Shown in pieces: positions 4,701 to 49,790 of a stretch of 53,937 bases of DNA; position 1 is the first letter of the stretch, and the number at the start of each line of letters is the position of its first letter. Where the stretch lies: the IMG/VR virus record IMGVR_UViG_3300044732_000510. One strand, given 5' to 3'. This DNA is from an uncultured virus (IMG/VR IMGVR_UViG_3300044732_000510) (lineage: Duplodnaviria; Heunggongvirae; Uroviricota; Caudoviricetes). The position numbers and the translations under genes were made by a program. The notes beneath the pieces are model-generated. The model ran no database searches. It was not told the origin of the DNA and was given only the letters and a program-made list of their open reading frames with translations.

Positions 4701-7327
4701 GTTCCTGCAAAATAATCTCCTAGTGAACCTCCAGAATTTACATAATTAAAAAAAGAATTTCTACTACCTAAAGTACCTATTTGCCAATTATACCAAAAAT
4801 TATTAGGACCAGGGCTAGGTGTCAAAGTAGTTGCACCCGGAGATTGTGTAAGATTAATACCACCAAATGGCAATGGAGTTGCTGCACTAGGTCCACCATT
4901 ACCACCTCCAGCAAGTAACCAATTTAAACCAAATTGACTGTTAAAACTACTTAATGGATAATTAATTTGTTTTTTACCACTTCTTCTTAATAATGCATCT
5001 CCTAAACCTGAAAGAAGAATTATCCATATAGCATCATTAGTTAATAGTTTAAACTTAGGATGACCTTGTGGTTCTATAAATCTTTGTAAAGCTTCACCTT
5101 CAAGATGTCCATATAGTTTTAATTCTATTGGAGCCAAGTAAGGGTTTCTAAAACTAGTATCTGGTGAATGAAAGCTAATAATATTTTTAGGGACAGTTTG
5201 GTCTAAGAAGTTATTATTAATATCAACAGACTTTATGAATGGATCATTATAAAGAAAGTTATTATCAGCAATGTTGTTATTATTACCTATTGGTATAATT
5301 GTGTTATATGGATAATTAGCATAAAGACCTGTTCTGTTGTTAGCAGGAACTCCAACTCTATTATAAGTTCTAAAGTTGTTTATCATCCCTTTGGCAATTA
5401 TACTTCTGTTGCCATCTCTAGACCCTCTTAAGATTTCATAACCAACAATTCCTGGAATATCATTACCATCATTATCTTTTGGATATATGATATTCTTAAA
5501 CTGTACTGACATCATTCTTATAAACAACGCATTGGTTGCAACACTTCTTCTGAAATGATGGGCAATGTTAGATCCTGTTAACTGTCCTGTAGCTTCATTG
5601 TAAATTACATTTTCAGGAAACTTATGATGTCTAATGGGTAATCCACATAAGTCATATGAATCACTTGGAATTGGTTGGCCGGTAGTAGGATCCCATGTAC
5701 CAGTCCAAAAATACTCACTGGCATTCCATATGTCTGGTCTGTTATCTGGATATTTTTCTGTAGATTCCCAATAACCCATTTTACCAGCACCAATCACTCT
5801 ACCACCATCGGGTAGTGTGTAAGGATAAACTGCAGGGTTTGATGGAAATACTGTTGCCGTATTTATAGTTTGAAATAATCTTGTGTCTCCTGGAAAACTA
5901 TCTGAGTTTGAATAAGGTTCATTCTCAAGAATACCATTTGGTCCCCATGATTCAGCAGCTCTTCCTGGAATGTGGTATGATGCAGACTTATCTCCTGTGT
6001 TGTATACCCATCTTATAAAAAATGTATATACCTCATCTCTCATGAAGTTAGTCTTTGATCCTCCTCTAAAATAATAATTAGAAGGATATTCTACTGACAC
6101 CCATTCTGTTTCAATTAAATTTGCTAATGGTTGGTAGTTAAAGTCAAACTTTGATGTTGGCCCTACTCTAAGCAAGTAAGTATTTAACTGAGCTATTTGA
6201 TCTGACTTTTCAAATACAGGAGTCATCAAAGGTATAAGTGTAATATCTATAGATTCAAAGCTAGGCTTATACTGATCTATAAATATATTTCTAGTATTTG
6301 TAGAATAGTATCCTATTACTCTAGCTACTGTATTTTCATTTATGTTTGCAACAAGTACAAGTTGAAACTCATCAAAGTTTTCTGTATCTGCTTCTACTTC
6401 TAATTGTAATGAACCTTGTACAGAATTCAAAGTATAAACTGGTTGCACATTACTAGCTGCAAAATAATCTGAAACTTTTTCTCCTTTTATTGTGTATGCA
6501 ATAACTGCATAATAGCTACCATTCTCTAATGAACCTGAACCCTCACCAAGTCTTAAATTAAGACAAGGTGTATTCATTAATCTTGCAAGTCTTATTTTTT
6601 CACAGTTAAGAGTATTAATAGAAATACAAGTAATACACCCATCTACAGGATGTCCTATTGGCCATACACCAGGTTCTGTCTGACTTGTATTAGATGAGTC
6701 AGTACATATTTGATTCCATTCTACACCTGGCCAAAGAATATTTGTACCATTACCGTTTGAATAAAAGTTAACAGTTGTGGATCCCGGACCTCCTCCTAAC
6801 CAAACATAATCAGAACTAGGCCAAGTTTTTGGATCACCAACATTTAGGTACCTATCTGGATTTTTACCATCAGCCCAATATACCTGCCAAGAACAATCTT
6901 CTTTTTCTCTTGCTGCTCCGGATATTAGATGTGCTTTACTAAAACCTAAGCATGCATCTTGAACAATTGGTCTATATGTACATGAGGCTTCTTCAAATAA
7001 ACCTATCTCAGACACTCTTGGTAAAATCTCAACAGCACTTGCATGAGAAGCCGTGAATACAATCCACTTATCACTAAACATGTGTATTGCACCTATAATG
7101 TATCTGAATGAAAAAGCATTAGGAATTGTTGCTCCAGCTGTTGCACACAATGCATTTGATGCCTCATTAGATATAGCTCCTACATCACCTTCAATTGTAT
7201 TGTTGACTGCATTCCTAGCATAAGTCCACATACCCTCCTGTATAAATGCAGGATCACTATCTTTATGTAATCCTTTTATGAAGGTGCTAGTCTTACTAGT
7301 ATTTAAATTTCCTTTTTCTCCTGCCAT
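1769..7327 (-). CDS. Tail nozzle/muzzle (tail stabilisation protein, P22 gp10 / T7 gp12-like), 1852 aa
   Basis: N-terminal KGLHKD...YARNA and C-terminal WTVSYD...WISFHDW motifs, beta-rich composition, size, and synteny with ring and IHF-like genes match crAss-like Tstab/muzzle proteins. Confidence 0.75.
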   Translation of the reverse strand: MAGEKGNLNTSKTSTFIKGLHKDSDPAFIQEGMWTYARNAVNNTIEGDVGAISNEASNALCATAGATIPNAFSFRYIIGAIHMFSDKWIVFTASHASAVEILPRVSEIGLFEEASCTYRPIVQDACLGFSKAHLISGAAREKEDCSWQVYWADGKNPDRYLNVGDPKTWPSSDYVWLGGGPGSTTVNFYSNGNGTNILWPGVEWNQICTDSSNTSQTEPGVWPIGHPVDGCITCISINTLNCEKIRLARLMNTPCLNLRLGEGSGSLENGSYYAVIAYTIKGEKVSDYFAASNVQPVYTLNSVQGSLQLEVEADTENFDEFQLVLVANINENTVARVIGYYSTNTRNIFIDQYKPSFESIDITLIPLMTPVFEKSDQIAQLNTYLLRVGPTSKFDFNYQPLANLIETEWVSVEYPSNYYFRGGSKTNFMRDEVYTFFIRWVYNTGDKSASYHIPGRAAESWGPNGILENEPYSNSDSFPGDTRLFQTINTATVFPSNPAVYPYTLPDGGRVIGAGKMGYWESTEKYPDNRPDIWNASEYFWTGTWDPTTGQPIPSDSYDLCGLPIRHHKFPENVIYNEATGQLTGSNIAHHFRRSVATNALFIRMMSVQFKNIIYPKDNDGNDIPGIVGYEILRGSRDGNRSIIAKGMINNFRTYNRVGVPANNRTGLYANYPYNTIIPIGNNNNIADNNFLYNDPFIKSVDINNNFLDQTVPKNIISFHSPDTSFRNPYLAPIELKLYGHLEGEALQRFIEPQGHPKFKLLTNDAIWIILLSGLGDALLRRSGKKQINYPLSSFNSQFGLNWLLAGGGNGGPSAATPLPFGGINLTQSPGATTLTPSPGPNNFWYNWQIGTLGSRNSFFNYVNSGGSLGDYFAGTDGQSVFARNNNLAGGRLGGVTNAASYTVEQSGASLLPSWTDALFNTLSGVQQSGFYFMEGAQAAQELIYAFTPFRQYALQLIGHGLYDKFNPFNINDTKRFKIADSSYIFKNISFEIDDYNDTITNDPFQKYTINNYKRGQLLMLRTERANTPVTDGPKLLVTGTSGLDISLGSLGMFDDELGPTGPKINEKKKSIEFGTRIGSHYGAMKIDNDDQYGQLNTITQFPITPCEQKFNYTALPSTITPISVIDKVLVQKRINETPVIFGGDTYITRFTEKNPMFFFYNWLYTEPNGYEYNYFNSQMIPEPRYWANSERYDVSQINITSIGAWSALFNNSTTGTGFLPNDYFNLDNQYYIRETDKPFGIGGGYPGFTNAKNSYFYLSASGVRDFFVESDVINDFREVGTFDYEKCYNPYRYTDLETMFRMDKLTATEGNFYLYDYSLSITRLTNRYTSFGFLQSVYYNPEVAELCYTYYPNTITYSLPVSQTSSTDGWFIFLPLNRKDFVSQISGVKNFAKTGAFVTFKNDSPIVFQGVDTLEMDGSGTKVIIGDGGVFARDPQNIVVADRPYMYGSSQGRLSVISTPAGLYYISQDQGKVFSYGEGLQEVSQAGMKWWFDYFLPCKLVEDFPDYPYTDNPVAGVGTQAVFDNYNSVLYFCKKDYKLKEIGPDGFPLAGRVINVNSGKESYFNYYPYVDGKPSDVPVKLALGDSRIFEDASWTVSYDPKSQFWISFHDWHPDLVIPTKDSFITTRANQFYKHGANCGDYCNFYGVQYPFEIEFPVSTGQTVTTVKSIEYVLECYRREKRFCTDQFHVLDYNFDRLVIHNSEQISGYLNLNVFPKNNIALSLLYPQLNVNNNSFDILFSKEENKYRVNQFWDITKDRGEFPNGSGYPPQGQLIPGTTTLLGNYPENMLWITEANGYKKAINPTAVDYNKSLLQRKKFRHMVNFMYLSKTNSRDTNMILKLFNSKNQYSLR

Positions 7328-8370: not shown

Positions 8371-9066
8371 TTATCTTTGAATTAAATGATTATTAAAAAT
8401 TATTTCTTTTAATATTTGCCTAGGTCTACCATAATAAAATTTATGTATCAAACTGTCTCTTTTTAAATTGAAATAATCTTCAACTTCTCTTTTGCTATTA
8501 AATATAATACAAGTATTAGTATCTAAATTTGTAACCTTAACAATTTTACCTTTACATCTTTTACCTTTATTTTTAGCCATTGTCTCTTTAATAGCTTTTA
8601 TATGTTCAGGTGTATAATTTCTTTTTTGACCTCTAAGTTTAGACATTCTAGCTTCTACCCATTCAGATGATTGTTTTCTACCTTTAAGAGCAGTAGTTTT
8701 ACCTTTTCTTGTCAATGATCTTTTTTCTAAAGCTTCTTTTGTCATGTGTGCTAAATCTTCACCACCTTTTGTAAGATTGTATCCATTTTTTCTTATATCT
8801 GTTCTATGGTAACTTATCCAAAAAATTTCTCTTTCTTTTAAAAATAATTCATCACATTTTTCAACAGGAAAAATAATCATTTTTTGTTTTTTATTAAATG
8901 CATTTTGCAAATAAGAATTAGAATGTCTATTTGCTTTTAAATCATTAACATGATCTCTTACTCTTATTTTATAATGTTTACTTAGTCCAATATACATTTT
9001 TCCTGTATCATAATTTAAAATACAATATATACAAGATTTATCATATGCATTTTCTAAAACTTCCAT
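8371..9066 (-). CDS. GIY-YIG homing endonuclease with NUMOD-type DNA-binding repeats
   Basis: CIYCILN-x5-MYIG, then R..H...L...H.N..LQ, E..WI and GYNLT.GG motifs, with a basic C-terminal half. Confidence 0.9.
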   Translation of the reverse strand: MEVLENAYDKSCIYCILNYDTGKMYIGLSKHYKIRVRDHVNDLKANRHSNSYLQNAFNKKQKMIIFPVEKCDELFLKEREIFWISYHRTDIRKNGYNLTKGGEDLAHMTKEALEKRSLTRKGKTTALKGRKQSSEWVEARMSKLRGQKRNYTPEHIKAIKETMAKNKGKRCKGKIVKVTNLDTNTCIIFNSKREVEDYFNLKRDSLIHKFYYGRPRQILKEIIFNNHLIQR

Positions 9067-30459: not shown

Positions 30460-31152
30460 TTAAACTCTTTGATAGCAAAACCATTTAGGAGCTTTTGAAT
30501 TTCCATTTAAATAAGATCTAATAGTACTAAATGGTATATTCAAATATTCAGATAACTCTTTACCAGAACCAAATAATTTTTGTGTTTGAGTACATATAAT
30601 TTTTTTAGCATTATAGTGATTACCACCTGATACACTCAATCTTATTTTAACCCTAGTTTCTTCTGAAACTGCTTTACCTAATTGAGAGTTTCTCATTTTT
30701 AATTTAGATTCTTTTGTGTGTGTCTTACCTAAAAAAGTTTGTCTTCCTTTTGCTTTTTTGCTAATTTTTAATTTACTTTCATTTGAATGTGTTTTGCCAA
30801 AAAAATGGTTATTAGAACCTTTAGTATTTTTTATATATTCTGTTCTAATTTTGCAATATGTTTTTGCTGAAGGCTTGAATCTTAAATCTTTTTTTACATT
30901 ACACATATTCCACAATGCTTTATGCATTGCTGGTGAATTGGGATATATTGCAACTAATAACAAATGTGCAATGTAATGTTCTTTTGGTGTTAATAATACT
31001 ATATTAGGGTGGACAGTATTTCTACCATCACCCTTTCCTCCAAATGATTTTGGCTTTATATGATGAGCTTCATAATAAACATCATCAGATCTTTTTCTAC
31101 TTTCTAATTTTGCTTTAATTATAAGCTTGTTATATATTTTTATATAGTTCAT
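30460..31152 (-). CDS. HNH homing endonuclease with NUMOD3 repeats
   Basis: YYEAHHIKPKSFGG...NIVLLTPKEHYIAHLLL, plus FGKTHS.ESK.KI repeats. Confidence 0.9.
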   Translation of the reverse strand: MNYIKIYNKLIIKAKLESRKRSDDVYYEAHHIKPKSFGGKGDGRNTVHPNIVLLTPKEHYIAHLLLVAIYPNSPAMHKALWNMCNVKKDLRFKPSAKTYCKIRTEYIKNTKGSNNHFFGKTHSNESKLKISKKAKGRQTFLGKTHTKESKLKMRNSQLGKAVSEETRVKIRLSVSGGNHYNAKKIICTQTQKLFGSGKELSEYLNIPFSTIRSYLNGNSKAPKWFCYQRV

Positions 31153-44458: not shown

Positions 44459-44931
44459 GTAACAAAGATATAAAAAAATCCCGGACTGTAACACCCGGGA
44501 CTTCTTACCCAGTCCGTTGACCAGGAAACACATATCTTATTACAAAGATATAACTTTAATTAGAATGTGGTGGTATTGTATATAGTAGAATGTGATGGTA
44601 AAATGTTGCACATAAGAGAATGAGGTGGGGTATGCATGGATGAGCCCCACCCTCAGCTGGAGTTGGTGGTACCCCCCGTGAAGAAATGGCAGACAAAAAC
44701 AAATCAAGATGCAATAATATATTTTTATCTGTAGGAAATATGTATGTAATAGCATGATAGTTATCAATAGATATGTTAGATAGTATGATGTATAGTATGA
44801 TGTATATAACCAATGCTTCCTGAAATATCTCAACCAACATGTTATATATCTAACAAGCAGGCAAGCACACACAGTATATGTATATAGTGTATCTCCACTT
44901 TTAAATGATGATAATAAATAAATTAATAATT

Positions 44932-45066
44932 ATGGAAGAGACAACAGAAAAATGGGAAGATGTAATGCTTGCTAAGTTAGAAGAACAAAAGCAAGAGTTT
45001 ATTAAAGCATACATTAAAACATATGGAGAGTATCCAAAGTGTTATGCTCATGAACAAGGGAAGTAA
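44932..45066 (+). CDS. 44-aa early protein (below the ORF-track cutoff)
   Basis: MEETTEKWEDVMLAKLEEQKQEFIKAYIKTYGEYPKCYAHEQGK, between motif copy 1 and a terminator hairpin. Confidence 0.7.
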   Translation: MEETTEKWEDVMLAKLEEQKQEFIKAYIKTYGEYPKCYAHEQGK

Positions 45067-45117
45067 TTCCCTTTTTCTTTTTCCACTTTTAAGTGATAAT
45101 AATTAAATCTATAGAAT

Positions 45118-45306
45118 ATGAATGAGACATTTTACATCTTAAGCTACAAAACTACTATTGGAGGAGGAGACACAGGAGAACCTGAACAAACAATAAAGAC
45201 TACAAGACCTGACCTTACTGCAAGGGAACTTGACTCTTTGCTTTACTCTCTTCAAGAAGGAGACTTTGGAGCACACTTTTGGGACATAGATATAAAGGAG
45301 CAATAG
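45118..45306 (+). CDS. Early hypothetical protein
   Basis: Second motif-ORF-hairpin cassette. Confidence 0.7.
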   Translation: MNETFYILSYKTTIGGGDTGEPEQTIKTTRPDLTARELDSLLYSLQEGDFGAHFWDIDIKEQ

Positions 45307-45366
45307 CTCCTTTATTTTGTGTGTGTTTTTCCACTCATAATATATAATAACAAATACATATAAACC

Positions 45367-45585
45367 ATGCTTGCAAAAATTATTTTTATTTGGTATCTCA
45401 TTACAGGGACTGTAGTGTACCAACATGATGTTGAAGGTAGAAACACTTATGCTCTATTCTTTCCTGATGGGAAGGTAGTTGATTATGCTTATAAGGCAGA
45501 AATCATAGAGTATATAGAGACCGGAACATTTGAGTATGATGAAACTTTGGAAGACAAAGTTACAGATGCAGATAAGGGGGAGTAA
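45367..45585 (+). CDS. Early protein with a hydrophobic N-terminus
   Basis: Third cassette. Confidence 0.7.
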   Translation: MLAKIIFIWYLITGTVVYQHDVEGRNTYALFFPDGKVVDYAYKAEIIEYIETGTFEYDETLEDKVTDADKGE

Positions 45586-45633
45586 TTCCCCTTTATTATT
45601 TTCCACTTTAAATCTAAACTAAATTAATATACT

Positions 45634-45810
45634 ATGAATACATTAGCATTAATCCTTACTTTGTGGGGAACACCTGTTGTCACTAATCAAGCTGACAAAA
45701 CTGTAGTAGAGTTTGAAGACAAGATGATAGTAGTCTTAGACTCTACTAGTAAGATCACTGAGATATATGTACTTGGTGATGAAGATTGGACAAGACTGAG
45801 AGCTGAATAA
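45634..45810 (+). CDS. 58-aa early protein, paralog of 50712-50984
   Basis: MNTLALILTLWGTPVVTNQADKTVVEFEDKMIVVLDSTSKITEIYVLGDEDWTRLRAE; fourth cassette. Confidence 0.7.
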   Translation: MNTLALILTLWGTPVVTNQADKTVVEFEDKMIVVLDSTSKITEIYVLGDEDWTRLRAE

Positions 45811-45859
45811 GCTCTTAGTTTTCTCCACTTTTAAATGTAACTAATTAAAATTATATATT

Positions 45860-46051
45860 ATGGAATCAAAAGAACTATTTGCTATAGCTGATCAGTTAGA
45901 CCTATTGATTGATAGCTTAGAAAACATAGCAAAGACCTTTGAACAGAAATGTGAGCTGTCTGACTTGAAGGCTTATAGAGCACATGTTCAAGAAGGTATT
46001 GAAAGCTTAGTAAGTCAAGCTGAAGACCAAATGAATGAAGGGGGTTATTAA
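45860..46051 (+). CDS. Acidic helical early protein
   Basis: Fifth cassette. Confidence 0.7.
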   Translation: MESKELFAIADQLDLLIDSLENIAKTFEQKCELSDLKAYRAHVQEGIESLVSQAEDQMNEGGY

Positions 46052-46106
46052 CTCCCTTTATTATTTCTCCACTTTAAATTAATTGTAAATTCTAAATCTA
46101 TATACC

Positions 46107-46175
46107 ATGGTAAGTTATGTAATTATCAACGGGATTGTTACCGTTAAGGAATGGGTATTAAACCCTAATGCATGA
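46107..46175 (+). CDS. 22-aa micro-peptide
   Basis: MVSYVIINGIVTVKEWVLNPNA lies between motif copy 6 and a hairpin (46180-46207), with the same spacing as the other cassettes. Confidence 0.5.
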   Translation: MVSYVIINGIVTVKEWVLNPNA

Positions 46176-46282
46176 GATTAAAGCATCACTTTAAATGTGG
46201 TGCTTTATTACTTTGATATATAGATACTTAACCAGAGTGTTTCTCCACTTTTAATAAACTGAAATATTTAAAACTATATATT

Positions 46283-46729
46283 ATGAGCTATTTAGGTTAT
46301 GAATGGGAAAATCAAGTTAGTATACTTGCATCCCGAATTACTCTGTATTTACAGAAAGAAATTAAATTATCTTTCTTGTCTTCAGCTACTGTTAGAACTA
46401 TAGCAGGTTATAGTAAGGACAAAGAAGAATGGACTGTTCAAGGCTTTTGTTTATCCAGATATAATATACCAATGGATGTAGCTGAGGAAATGGTTGCTGA
46501 CTTAAAGTGTATTTATGTAAATAAAAGATACACATATGAAACAGCATTTGCAGTTTGTGCTTATCCTGAAGTTATGCAAGCTTGGTATGATATGATGTGG
46601 GAAGGAACTGTTGCTACTAAACTTATACAAGATGCAGGTGGTATAGATGCAATGTGTAGATTATCTGAAGAAGCACATCAAGCACTTGAGCAAAAGTTAA
46701 AAGCAGAAACAGAAAGATGTTTAGTTTAG
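46283..46729 (+). CDS. Early hypothetical protein
   Basis: Seventh cassette, followed by a GGGGGA-GTAA-TCCCC-T tract terminator. Confidence 0.75.
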   Translation: MSYLGYEWENQVSILASRITLYLQKEIKLSFLSSATVRTIAGYSKDKEEWTVQGFCLSRYNIPMDVAEEMVADLKCIYVNKRYTYETAFAVCAYPEVMQAWYDMMWEGTVATKLIQDAGGIDAMCRLSEEAHQALEQKLKAETERCLV

Positions 46730-46854
46730 AATAAGGGGGAGTAATCCCCTTTTTTTTTAAATGTTAACCATGGTGTCTTTTGTTGTTGCTCCGCAACAAG
46801 GCTTTTTTCCACTCATAATAGAGGGGGATTATTAACCTTTTAAATTTTAGCATT

Positions 46855-47247
46855 ATGAGCAAAATTGAATTTAAGCCGGAAACAACACCGGCAGGAGACA
46901 CAGTATTAGTAGCATCTATTACTGCGGAATTGGTATCTCAAGGTAGCAACCCAATTGCAAACAAAAATGGTAATGAGTTTTATCCCGTTACTATTAAGTT
47001 TGAGAATGCATTGGGTAATCAACAATCTGTACCTGCATTGTTATACAAAGGCAATGCTGATTATGGTGTTGAAAAGGGAGTTAGCTATCTTACAAAGATT
47101 ATTGCTAGTGCAGGTAGTAAACCGTTGTTTATTATGTCTCACTTAGCAAGAGGTACTGAAGCTAGCTTAGCTGACTTGGGCTTGAATATGGAAGACTTCC
47201 AAACAGCAGGAGTTATCCAAGACTTCAACAAGGTACCTAAGAAGTAA
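46855..47247 (+). CDS. Early protein, possibly OB-fold/ssDNA-binding
   Basis: Eighth cassette; beta-rich with an aromatic/Gly pattern. The fold assignment is inference. Confidence 0.5.
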   Translation: MSKIEFKPETTPAGDTVLVASITAELVSQGSNPIANKNGNEFYPVTIKFENALGNQQSVPALLYKGNADYGVEKGVSYLTKIIASAGSKPLFIMSHLARGTEASLADLGLNMEDFQTAGVIQDFNKVPKK

Positions 47248-47256
47248 GGTAATTAA

Positions 47257-47291
47257 GAGCACTCTGTAGAAATACAGGGTGTTCTTTTTTT
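47257..47291 (+). terminator. Intrinsic terminator
   Basis: AGAGCACTCTGTA-GAAA-TACAGGGTGTTCT followed by a T tract. Confidence 0.8.
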
Positions 47292-47821
47292 ATTCAGCTT
47301 GATTACTTAACCTATAGTAGGTATAGTGGCTTTATTTAAATAGTTAACCATGATATTAAATAGTTAACCATGGTTTTTTTCTTTGTGCTTCGCAGGCTTA
47401 TTTCCACTCATAAGGGAGTGGGGAAGATAGCGTGGAATGATCCGGTCAAGTAGGAATAGTAAGTACTATTATGGCTGTTTACACTACAATACACACATAC
47501 TGCATACTAGCCCGGGAATCATTCTGACTCTGAGTATATAAATTGTGCAGGATTAGTATAGAAAAATGTGTAAGAGAGTGTTAAAATGGGTGTTAAACTC
47601 TCCACGGTCACATTAGTAAAAGTAAAAGCTAACAATCTAGAACTAAGCTCAATATTAATATATATGGCTAGAACTAGCTTAATAAATTACACAGACTCTT
47701 ACTAAACTAACTTATTACTATTACTATATATTATTACTATTAAGTAAGAGTGTTGGACAGTAATATCTTCCGGGGATTATTAATCCGGTCAAAATATGAT
47801 TATTAACTTAAATTAAAACTT

Positions 47822-48184
47822 ATGATTATTACAGCTGAACACTTAGAACAATTACCTAATCACCCTAAAGTAGAAGAAATGATTAGGCTACACTATCCTC
47901 ATTTATATAGCAGATATAAATTAGTGAAACTTAAACAATCTCATAGACCGGAATCTAAGAGATTTGAGGGTAAACTTAATGAAAGAAGTAGCACATATGA
48001 AACTAGAAAAAGAACTAGACCATGGGATAACTGTTGGTTTAGTAATAAACCACATATTATTAATCTTACTGTAGAAGAAGCAGTAAGTAGGTATCCGGAT
48101 TATATGTTGTGGTGCTATAAAAACTTAAGTATCAAATGGTCTACACATACTATAAAACTATTTACCACAAGGTTTCAGGCATAA
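47822..48184 (+). CDS. Hypothetical protein
   Basis: C-terminal F..K.....TV.E.....PDY..W motif reminiscent of exonuclease X C-terminal/DUF3820-like modules. Confidence 0.55.
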   Translation: MIITAEHLEQLPNHPKVEEMIRLHYPHLYSRYKLVKLKQSHRPESKRFEGKLNERSSTYETRKRTRPWDNCWFSNKPHIINLTVEEAVSRYPDYMLWCYKNLSIKWSTHTIKLFTTRFQA

Positions 48185-48225
48185 CCTCTCATCCTGTAAA
48201 GCAGGGGTTGACTTGTGGTATATAT

Positions 48226-48368
48226 ACTCTCATCCAAGCAGGTGTATTACCAAGATAAAAGGAATTTAAAGGTGTAACAGTAAGGTTACTGTCTTTTATG
48301 GAGATATATATCAAGGATTGCAACCTTGTACTTATAGTAATATAAGTATCCAATATTTGGATGAGAGT
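48226..48368 (+). ncRNA. Candidate multi-branched structured RNA
   Basis: A perfect 12-bp closing stem (48226-48237/48357-48368) encloses several hairpins, including TACTTATA-GTAA-TATAAGTA. Confidence 0.55.
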
Positions 48369-48478
48369 TTTTAATGCACCATTCCTGATTCCCAAGGTCA
48401 GGCAGTTGTAATCGAAATTAGATGTATGTATATAACACATACTACCTATAGGTTACAACTGAGTGCAGAGGGGTCTTT
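48366..48478 (+). ncRNA. Twister-like self-cleaving ribozyme
   Basis: UAA-UGCA-CC...CCUGA-UUCCCAAGG-UCAGG-[P5 CAGUUGUAA/UUACAACUG]-AG-UGCA-GAGGG reproduces the twister order (U|AA, P2, T2, P4 loop UCCCAAG, P2', GAGGG). P1 is weak. Confidence 0.6.
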
Positions 48479-48526: not shown

Positions 48527-49438
48527 ATGAGAAACTTGTCTACAAAAGGGTTGAGCATGTCCCAAGCACAAAGTATTAGTAATCTTTGTAACCAAAATGC
48601 TATAGAAATCCAAAGAGAATTGGATTCTTACAACAACTGTAGTAAATCTATTACAGTTGCCGGTCAGGTATATTCATTACAAGATGGAGTGCCTATGCCG
48701 GATAACATCCTTGACTTATTGAAGAATAAGGGTGACTTACATGCTGCTCAAGCTTTCTTAATGGAAGCTATTAGGAGTAAAGATGCCATGATATCAAGTA
48801 TCAAGAATAGTCAGCCTGATTTATCTCACTTAGTTAAACCTGAGAGAGAGTTAATAGATGACTATGAGGTTGAGTATGGTGTTGAAGAGTCATGGGGTTG
48901 GACTCAGTTATCTGATGCTGAGTATGCTGAGTATCTTCAAGCTGAAGCTTTAGCTTCTCATCTTGGTCAGTTTATCCATAAAAGTGGTAAACTAACTCAG
49001 TTGAGAAAAGAACTACCTAATACTCCTAGTATTGAGTGGTTTGAAGTTGAGGACGGGAAGAAGACTCCAGTGAAGGTGACTAAGCATCATTTAGCTCCGG
49101 TCTTGATGAGTGTTCATGAGAATATTGCTGCAGAGCATAGAGTTCATGAGCAACGTGTAAATTATTACAAAGCTAAGGTTAAAAACTTAGTTAGTGATGA
49201 GAATGCACGCATTCAGAGAGTTAATGCAGACAAAGCTGCTGAGTTCTTAAAGCTTGAGAAAGAAGCTCATGAGAAGTATCAGTTAGCAATGGATGCTTAC
49301 AATGGTGAGATACTGAGACTTACTATGGAGTTTAATAGTCAACGTGAGTTGGATATTAAAGCTGCTGCAGCATTGAGAATCAATGTTGATCCTAGATTTC
49401 AGCATGTAATTGATATGTTCATTACACCTGAGAAATAG
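48527..49438 (+). CDS. 303-aa alpha-helical/coiled-coil protein of unknown function
   Basis: Long ORF with a strongly biased codon set and long helical segments; N-terminal GLSMSQAQSISNLCNQ. Confidence 0.85.
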   Translation: MRNLSTKGLSMSQAQSISNLCNQNAIEIQRELDSYNNCSKSITVAGQVYSLQDGVPMPDNILDLLKNKGDLHAAQAFLMEAIRSKDAMISSIKNSQPDLSHLVKPERELIDDYEVEYGVEESWGWTQLSDAEYAEYLQAEALASHLGQFIHKSGKLTQLRKELPNTPSIEWFEVEDGKKTPVKVTKHHLAPVLMSVHENIAAEHRVHEQRVNYYKAKVKNLVSDENARIQRVNADKAAEFLKLEKEAHEKYQLAMDAYNGEILRLTMEFNSQRELDIKAAAALRINVDPRFQHVIDMFITPEK

Positions 49439-49447
49439 TGTACTAAT

Positions 49448-49753
49448 TAGGTGAGTAAGAGATAGGCACAAGCTGATTCTCTTACTCTTTATACCTAGTG
49501 ACAGGAATCCAGAACAACTAAAATTCAATGGTTGATTACCATTATACAATGAATACTTAATAGTATAAAACCGCTTCTCTTCAAATTATAAAAACTGAGA
49601 TAGAACTCATCATCAGACAGGTTATGCATAAAAACAAAATATGCAATTGGCTGATAACAATGAGACTTAGTATTTGTATTTGTCTTTGCAGAAGAGAAGG
49701 TCTTTGACTTAGTATTTGTATTTGATTTTAGCTATATGTTCCTGTCACAAGGT
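49448..49753 (+). ncRNA. Candidate ~310-nt structured ncRNA with duplicated hexamer tracts
   Basis: Nested stems at 49453-62/49478-87, 49498-507/49739-48, 49518-24/49725-31, 49574-82/49691-99, 49606-10/49660-64, 49612-16/49651-55 and 49625-30/49640-45. A 19-nt direct repeat lies at 49664 and 49706. Confidence 0.7.
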
Positions 49754-49790
49754 GACTATATATATTAATTATTCACTCAAAAATAAACTT

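Follow-up and report, generated by a model that had tools for sequence, protein, structure and literature searches.

The stretch of DNA described here, which we call the window, runs to 53,937 nucleotides and comes from an uncultured virus. That virus is a tailed phage whose genes for the major head protein, the portal and the terminase all lie in the window. Because the best matches of its terminase are crAss-type phages, at ~25% identity, we infer a host among the Bacteroidota; the hosts named in the 125 records that match the terminase are mostly Bacteroides and Flavobacterium. Two homing-endonuclease-like ORFs lie within the structural gene block (8371-9066 and 30460-31152, minus strand), one GIY-YIG-like and the other HNH-like as judged by eye. 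Elsewhere, at 44894-47410 (+), the word TTT(C)TCCACT(T/C) occurs nine times, mostly right behind a terminator-like hairpin, with a small gene following, and is probably a phage early promoter. Our subject is a module of 1.25 kb made of one gene and one RNA. The gene, a 303-aa ORF at 48527-49438 (+) within a block of small, early-type + strand genes, encodes a protein with predicted long helices and two beta-hairpins. Eleven bases past its stop codon begins a non-coding RNA, which would occupy 49450-49757 on the same strand if its ends are read from the closing helix, GGU/ACU, and from covariation.

The initial annotation had picked out this RNA by its long-range stems and hexamer tracts, and every helix and repeat that it named is present where it was placed. 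The layout is a closing helix, two stems (P0 and P1), a large internal loop, a third stem (P2) in which a CG bulge is conserved and, in the terminal region, an optional arm and the first hexamer tract. GGU at 49450-49452 would pair with the 3' ACU at 49755-49757 and so close a three-way junction with P0 and P1; this helix is conserved, paired in 95.5% of cells and with no change on both sides. P0 (49453-49487) is a 5' hairpin with an internal loop and a small GC(ACAA)GC cap, its 10 base pairs formed by GAGTAAGAGA (49453-49462) and TCTCTTACTC (49478-49487), as had been claimed. The long outer stem, P1, joins 49492-49507 to 49739-49754 and was likewise correctly described (GTGACAGGAA at 49498 with TTCCTGTCAC at 49739, extended by ACCT at 49493 and AGGT at 49750); the covariation alignment places its 3' strand and the terminal ACU at 49739-49757. 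Inside P1, a variable linker (49508-49569) lies opposite the second tract; it often forms a small hairpin of its own and is not conserved. There follows a segment at 49570-49585 that comprises ACCGC with the 2-nt CG bulge (49572-49573), the 5' strand of P2 and AAA. P2 pairs 49574-49582 with 49691-49699 (the annotated inner stem, CTTCTCTTC at 49574 and GAAGAGAAG at 49691), and the AAA pairs with the last UUU of the first tract. It is 98% paired, and in the alignment C134 is invariant and G135 and C136 are at least 90% conserved. The optional arm, P3 (49586-49663), carries at 49595-49603 the T-loop-like word CUGAGAUAG, found in 77 of 111 variants. P3 ranges from 22 to 194 nt and is almost missing in three loci (L062, L066, L109). 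Two of the annotated helices did not carry over to the family: the letters of CTAAAAT (49518) and ATTTTAG (49725) are there and lie outside the consensus fold, as does CTCAT/ATGAG in an apical arm (49606-49664) that is itself present.

Several lines of evidence bear on whether this structure is real. The stretch folds better than its shuffles, with z-scores of -4.14 on the + strand and -6.35 on the - strand. For comparative analysis we used an alignment of 59 homologues drawn from 101 loci, from which duplicates and most near-duplicates had been removed. RNAalifold predicted 46 consensus pairs, 39 with compensatory change. In a 52-pair structure, 43 pairs show compensatory change on both sides, a number reached by none of 500 shuffles, and 94.7% of cells pair against 40-51% in slid controls, a comparison that favours the structure, which was derived from the same 59 sequences. 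Double changes are unambiguous in all 10 pairs of P0, all 15 of P1 and 8 of the 11 of P2. G-U pairs are common on the + strand and A-C pairs rare, and because the former far outnumber the latter, the RNA is assigned to the + strand. We regard a structured RNA on that strand as almost certainly real. Rfam gave no match in the window at the gathering threshold; around the element, Rfam 15 at E values up to 10 returned only a chance snoRNA match touching the last bases, and the element in eight homologous loci had no match either. Covariation in the 59 homologues and the Rfam searches together support the original proposal of a conserved structured ncRNA that belongs to no Rfam family.

The RNA and the gene beside it turn out to be inseparable. 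A search by RNA pattern returned at least 119 loci, 80 with flanks and 39 with flanks too short to judge; among the matches listed, the gene lies upstream on the same strand in 77 of the 80. The other three comprise a locus with the gene 5 kb off on the same contig, a contig end and a chance match. Working from the gene, the core RNA pattern was found in 91 of 101 loci. Six of the remaining ten end early, one is a spurious weak match, two hold visible variants and one has its RNA 5 kb off. The RNA is thus present wherever a locus has enough sequence, at times after an insert or at that distance. Many of these loci are close relatives, and the counts overstate the number of independent events. 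Gene and RNA are inherited together, with this one protein gene as the obligate partner of the RNA. Inserts of 150 nt to 5 kb between the two are tolerated, and action in trans therefore suits. Two loci (L007 and L021) have an RNA nearly identical to that of the window and proteins just 79% and 75% identical, which suggests that the RNA may be exchanged between phages separately from the gene.

The pair persists down to ~25% protein identity and is spread across freshwater-type, jumbo and gut phages, with family members on contigs of up to 675 kb. A distant gut-phage branch, mostly on contigs of 100-190 kb and including two uncultured GenBank records, has rearranged its outer stems and retained P2 and both tracts. 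Two uncultured records are all that distant family members matched in a cultured-phage search, and the window protein matched nothing among the cultured phages of INPHARED. Cellular copies turned up on six GTDB contigs, all from MAGs and probably phage DNA. In the gut clade (L223-L268) a second conserved non-coding block, ended by a terminator, comes after the hexamer RNA, ~300-430 bases past the gene.

The two hexamer tracts lie at 49664-49688 (four units plus a G) and 49700-49737 (five units, 2 nt and then a conserved CUAUA), both on the + strand. An exact 19-mer shared by them, at 49664 and 49706 and so 42 nt apart, had been noted, and in the window it is striking: two occurrences against 0.07 expected, with none in 100 shuffles. 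An exact repeat of at least 19 nt exists in only 4 of the 59 aligned homologues, however, so the duplication is lineage-specific and incidental. What the homologues conserve, along with their compensatory changes, is the 6-nt period, with a unit that reads G-N-(not G)-U-U-U in fixed register.

The tracts had also been called largely unpaired. A single-sequence fold says otherwise, giving them unpaired probabilities of 0.35 and 0.24, with A-rich segments as partners; the comparative evidence restores the claim. The consensus fold grants the tracts just four weak pairs, none with a double change, and the tracts pair equally well with their own or a foreign linker or arm (46-68 of 111 across nine tests), and for these reasons we count them as single-stranded. 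The RNA is thus closed at both ends by covarying stems, which frame two U-rich single strands kept in an exact register of six bases. Single-stranded tracts could in principle serve the RNA itself, as third strands of a triple helix, which the initial annotation had listed among its options, or as self-association surfaces of a ROOL/GOLLD-like cage, with the protein bound elsewhere. U-rich strands in internal loops, A-rich flanks, the conserved bulge and the T-loop-like word would all be in keeping with such tertiary structure. Set against them are the near-chance result of the own-versus-other pairing tests and the missing A-tract partner, none being conserved; moreover, the linker opposite tract 2 and the arm vary several-fold in length and the tracts do not. 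We think it very doubtful that the tracts exist for RNA tertiary structure.

The letters within the units are not all held alike. Among 183 distinct slot-hexamers, a few of whose letters are set by the search pattern, position 1 is G in 135, A in 43 and T in 5; position 3 is C in 99, T in 67, A in 17 and never G; and position 5 is T in 165 and G in 14. Between relatives whose proteins are 70-80% identical, positions 2 and 3 of the hexamer show identities of 0.71 and 0.66, against 0.64 at fourfold codon sites, and positions 1, 4, 5 and 6 show 0.89-1.0, where two letters of positions 1 and 4-6 in one slot are set by the search pattern. Positions 2 and 3 drift at the neutral rate. The length of tract 2, measured with an anchor that leaves the spacing free, hardly varies: its spacer is 26 nt in 90 of 91 loci, not all of them independent, and 27 nt in one (L100), which is off register by 1 nt. 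Tract 2 is shorter by one unit in the most distant clade (L274 and L275), and one unit of tract 1 has been lost in L254 relative to L250. Tract lengths, in short, change in whole hexamers. A metagenome scan for a shorter tract 2 in the main clade gave 11 matches, all chance, lacking both P2 and the gene.

Fixed and variable letters that alternate in an RNA beside one partner gene bring VIPR to mind. VIPR (10.64898/2026.04.26.720920; 10.64898/2026.04.26.720927) too is a minimal phage locus, with one protein and an RNA whose short fixed/variable repeats sit beside structured parts; Vipr protomers oligomerise along the repeats, one per unit (10.64898/2026.04.26.720927), and one protomer per repeat would suit both systems. 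By analogy, our protein might lock UUUG and leave positions 2-3 (or 2-4) exposed for pairing with a target, DNA or RNA, and the likeness to VIPR just described (10.64898/2026.04.26.720920) speaks for such a gapped guide. The resemblance ends there. The VIPR unit has a period of 5 (GGY/NN) and ours of 6 (GNHUUU); its vrRNA has 9-16 GGY/NN pentamers, or a related 5-nt unit, where ours has two tracts of 4-5 units within a 310-nt multi-stem RNA; and its NN is hypervariable, whereas here the variable letters at positions 2-3, ~18 in all, change about as fast as fourfold sites and never include G at position 3. The VIPR protein is a RAMP, with an RRM core, G-loop and thumb; ours has long helices and two isolated hairpins, with no RRM order of elements in the model (pLDDT 92.8) and no glycine-rich loop in the alignment. 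Our RNA is also single-copy, found by pattern once each in three near-complete genomes (G002, G003, G005) and the window, with no array. Matches within these three carrier genomes and the window, contiguous or gapped, did not rise above shuffled controls. The module departs from VIPR in unit, in hypervariability and in fold. A programmable guide is disfavoured by the neutral drift of the variable letters, by the single copy and, in the sequences searched, by the absence of a self target; we hold it to be improbable.

What, then, of the partner protein? Its family is large (2131 clusters at 90% identity and 818 at 50%), and the AF2 model, the one just mentioned, shows helix, hairpin, helix, twice over, followed by a long arm. 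An internal duplication is unsupported, with an hhalign probability of 0.5%. The conserved polar residues are N19, K85, H151, R160, H204, E208, N212 and K215, the last four forming a conserved stripe along one helix, and these Asn, His, Glu and Lys residues may read bases. The protein is not basic; it is roughly neutral, with a median net charge of -3. Searches gave no significant Pfam, PHROG or PDB-sequence match, and for the distant-clade proteins no NCBIfam or PHROG match; Pfam in 124 members found no ToxN, AbiQ or HEPN nuclease, and nor did the fold lists. A structure search of the PDB had no match at E 0.001, and the sole match in BFVD is an uncharacterised member of the same family. VIA fold comparisons returned generic resemblances, to GPCRs for the whole protein (best Z 7.0), to the TolC-type protein VceC (Z 6.1, rmsd 10.7 over 214 aligned residues) and to short helical hairpins for residues 1-236 (best Z 8.3); Atlas matches of 0.79 and 0.77 (MACPF) are at noise level. 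Such weak matches do not prove a new fold. A homotrimer prediction scored 0.05, and we counted it neither way.

We propose that these pieces form a two-part phage module, in which a stable RNA acts in trans together with the product of the gene just upstream. The protein and the RNA probably form a complex. Of the roles first offered for the tracts, that of iterated protein-binding sites fits best with the register, the whole-hexamer steps, the free positions 2-3 and the obligate gene, which the initial annotation had overlooked. The protein would bind the tracts repeatedly, with one subunit or one binding module per hexamer, reading G at position 1 and the run of U at positions 4-6 and leaving positions 2-3 free; the CG bulge and CUAUA may act as register marks. 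We favour one protein per hexamer because the register is fixed, lengths change in six-base steps, the G and U letters are held, the middle letters are free and the obligate partner is a single one. Whether the protein goes on to coat the tracts in this way, so that a ribonucleoprotein results whose size is fixed at about 4 plus 5 units, we put at an even chance. Counting against it are a partner protein that is not basic and is without a known RNA-binding fold, and six-base steps, which units of two codons or a ring protein of the host would produce equally well.

The function of the ribonucleoprotein is the weakest step in our argument. We tentatively favour a scaffold that acts early in infection of the Bacteroidota host. 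On this proposal the RNA would assemble the protein or restrain it, much as the repeat RNAs of type III toxin-antitoxin systems do, and would not be a programmable guide. A bolder version, to which we give somewhat less than even credence, is that polymerisation on a short RNA repeat, here of six bases, has arisen apart from RAMP/Cas7 and Vipr proteins in an all-helical protein whose fold is uncharacterised. The RNA would then be a ruler or display rack that turns the complex either on conserved host machinery for translation or transcription or on a Bacteroidota anti-phage system.

The main rival to a protein coat remains a decoy, in which the protein holds the stems and the U-rich tracts trap a host factor; candidates include the ribosome or its protein S1, Rho and the primary sigma factor. 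For the sigma factor there is a tempting coincidence of letters: UGnnUUUG, read across unit borders, is one letter off TAnnTTTG, the consensus of the Bacteroidota -7 promoter box, and A, the commonest alternative to G at position 1 (43 of 183), gives the exact box. Excerpts from the literature pair TAnnTTTG with Flavobacterium and with promoter. The conserved letter is G, however, and not A. The TTTG and -7 boxes of Bacteroidota promoters are 19-21 nt apart, whereas the 6-nt register puts 16 or 22 nt between them. TAnnTTTG shows no enrichment in the window, with 78 occurrences where 78.7 would be expected, and the unpaired tract has no duplex before it, unlike in 6S RNA. A promoter scan found 8 against 12.3 expected. 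In favour of a decoy are also tract 2, which at ~30 nt has the length of a ribosome footprint, the tRNA genes in 28 of 60 loci scanned, a figure with no control for enrichment, and the position of the module among small early-type genes. Taken together, we consider a decoy unlikely.

We gave thought, too, to the tracts being decoded. A ribosome might read them, tmRNA-style, into an alternating beta-strand tag (VFDLVFVFDFSY), or a reverse transcriptase might copy them, with a K-S/T repeat peptide as the outcome, in the manner of DRT2. Conceptual translation of the tracts yields a striking alternating polar-hydrophobic peptide on the + strand and a K/R-S/T/A peptide on the -. Across 98 tract 2 variants the peptide patterns are conservative in both frames, with wobble positions common to both, and six-base steps would preserve the alternation. 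The linker between the tracts, however, is 12, 13 or 14 nt long (69, 38 and 4 of 111), so the two tracts share no common frame. TGA interrupts the + frame in four variants and in L274, the minus frame is broken by stops in L052 and L119, in one variant of tract 1 and in the gut form, and no stop is conserved past tract 2. Codon use is unlike that of the phage, with TTC at 4 of 72 where 27% is expected and AAC at 0 of 15 where 29% is expected. ARAGORN called no tRNA or tmRNA across the window, and neither it nor Rfam detected a tRNA-like domain in the element. The suggestion in the initial annotation that the tracts are a template fares no better, since RVT_1 occurs in just one of 10 carrier genomes (G006, at 335-919) and there lies more than 50 kb from the module. 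That reverse transcriptase (G006:C1:335-919, L272), from a 192-kb gut phage, has two in-frame TAG codons and is possibly recoded or broken; by position it is unrelated to the module. Decoding of the tracts is improbable, and if the protein does coat them, we treat these peptides as a by-product.

Other known systems provide partial likenesses. Type III toxin-antitoxin and AbiF systems also combine one gene with an adjacent RNA of iterated units and travel on mobile elements. The RNA units of type III toxin-antitoxin systems are pseudoknotted repeats of ~36 nt; ours are 6-nt single strands, and the protein matched no nuclease family. tmRNA, Y RNA with Ro60 and 6S RNA all have paired ends, a bulged helix, single-stranded internal tracts and a partner protein. 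Our RNA shares the architecture, and protein binding is proposed for it here; it has no tRNA-like end, no conserved frame and no Rfam match, and its partner is unrelated by our searches. UG27 (PMC9226505; 10.64898/2026.09.22.753630) likewise resides in Bacteroidota phages and has a structured ncRNA, short conserved words in internal loops and accessory proteins of no known family. It has three genes, including a reverse transcriptase, and arrays of ~150-nt, sequence-diverse units, whereas here there is one gene and one RNA, with no linked reverse transcriptase and no ncRNA array. GOLLD, ROOL and OLE are similarly large covarying RNAs of unknown role; ours is smaller, lacks an Rfam match and has an obligate partner gene and periodic unpaired tracts. 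A survey of periodicity (10.64898/2026.10.21.760802) covers, in its accessible text, periods of 5, 7, 8, 10, 18 and 60-79; that text does not mention 6, leaves some clusters undescribed and is without the terms hexamer, period 6, 6-mer, crAss and coiled.

Our literature search found no description of the RNA-protein pair; the RNA may be an unnamed entry in a viral catalogue of 10,000 candidates (PMC10690425). On present evidence, the module is an uncatalogued phage RNA-protein pair. Neither RNA nor protein matches a catalogued family, and this in a family with at least 818 protein clusters at 50% identity whose members occur in freshwater-type crAss relatives and in jumbo and gut phages alike. 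Widespread two-part phage modules of RNA and protein have repeatedly proved to be new mechanisms, and this one bears on whether repeat-per-protomer recognition of RNA arose a second time, outside the CRISPR/VIPR lineage.

Possible traces of expression come from RNA libraries, whose contigs reveal no strand, level, true ends or single transcript and may include DNA carry-over. Contigs 94-100% like the element occur in the RNA libraries of three studies (X2, X8, X13), one of them spanning 49455-49755, and in a fourth study a contig covers a relative's partner gene. Contigs from X8 and X17 run from the gene end into the RNA. In X2 no contig lies over the partner gene and in X8 just its last 27 bases are covered, which says nothing about relative abundance. 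At 49755 one contig from X2 gives way to adapter sequence; other runs stop elsewhere. In L048, L089 and L090 a ribozyme-like motif starts no more than ~10 bases from the inferred 3' end of the RNA, and the boundary agrees with this start, if the motif cuts.

The motif in question has a counterpart in the window at 48372-48472 (+), 55 bases before the partner gene: a second structured element, whose stems covary and whose loop can pair with a 3' GAGGG, and which resembles a twister ribozyme. Rfam gave no match to it. Its pattern matched 45 times in the 101 loci, 42 of them upstream of the gene and three right after the RNA, in the loci just named. Hatchet ribozymes (RF02678, 81-83 bits) lie upstream of the partner gene in three of eight loci scanned (L045 1422-1559, L089 2493-2629 and L048 712-848); two hatchet words tested in the window were absent. 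Also upstream, an intergenic-looking stretch at 48160-48300 (+) repeats the word CTCTCATCC, is matched by contigs in two RNA libraries and is possibly a further structured RNA. L062 has a phage tmRNA gene (5121-5492) ~900 bases past the RNA, the tRNA near the module in the closest clade is often a lone tRNA-Arg(TCT), and in L098 a tRNA with a TTA (stop) anticodon sits near the module.
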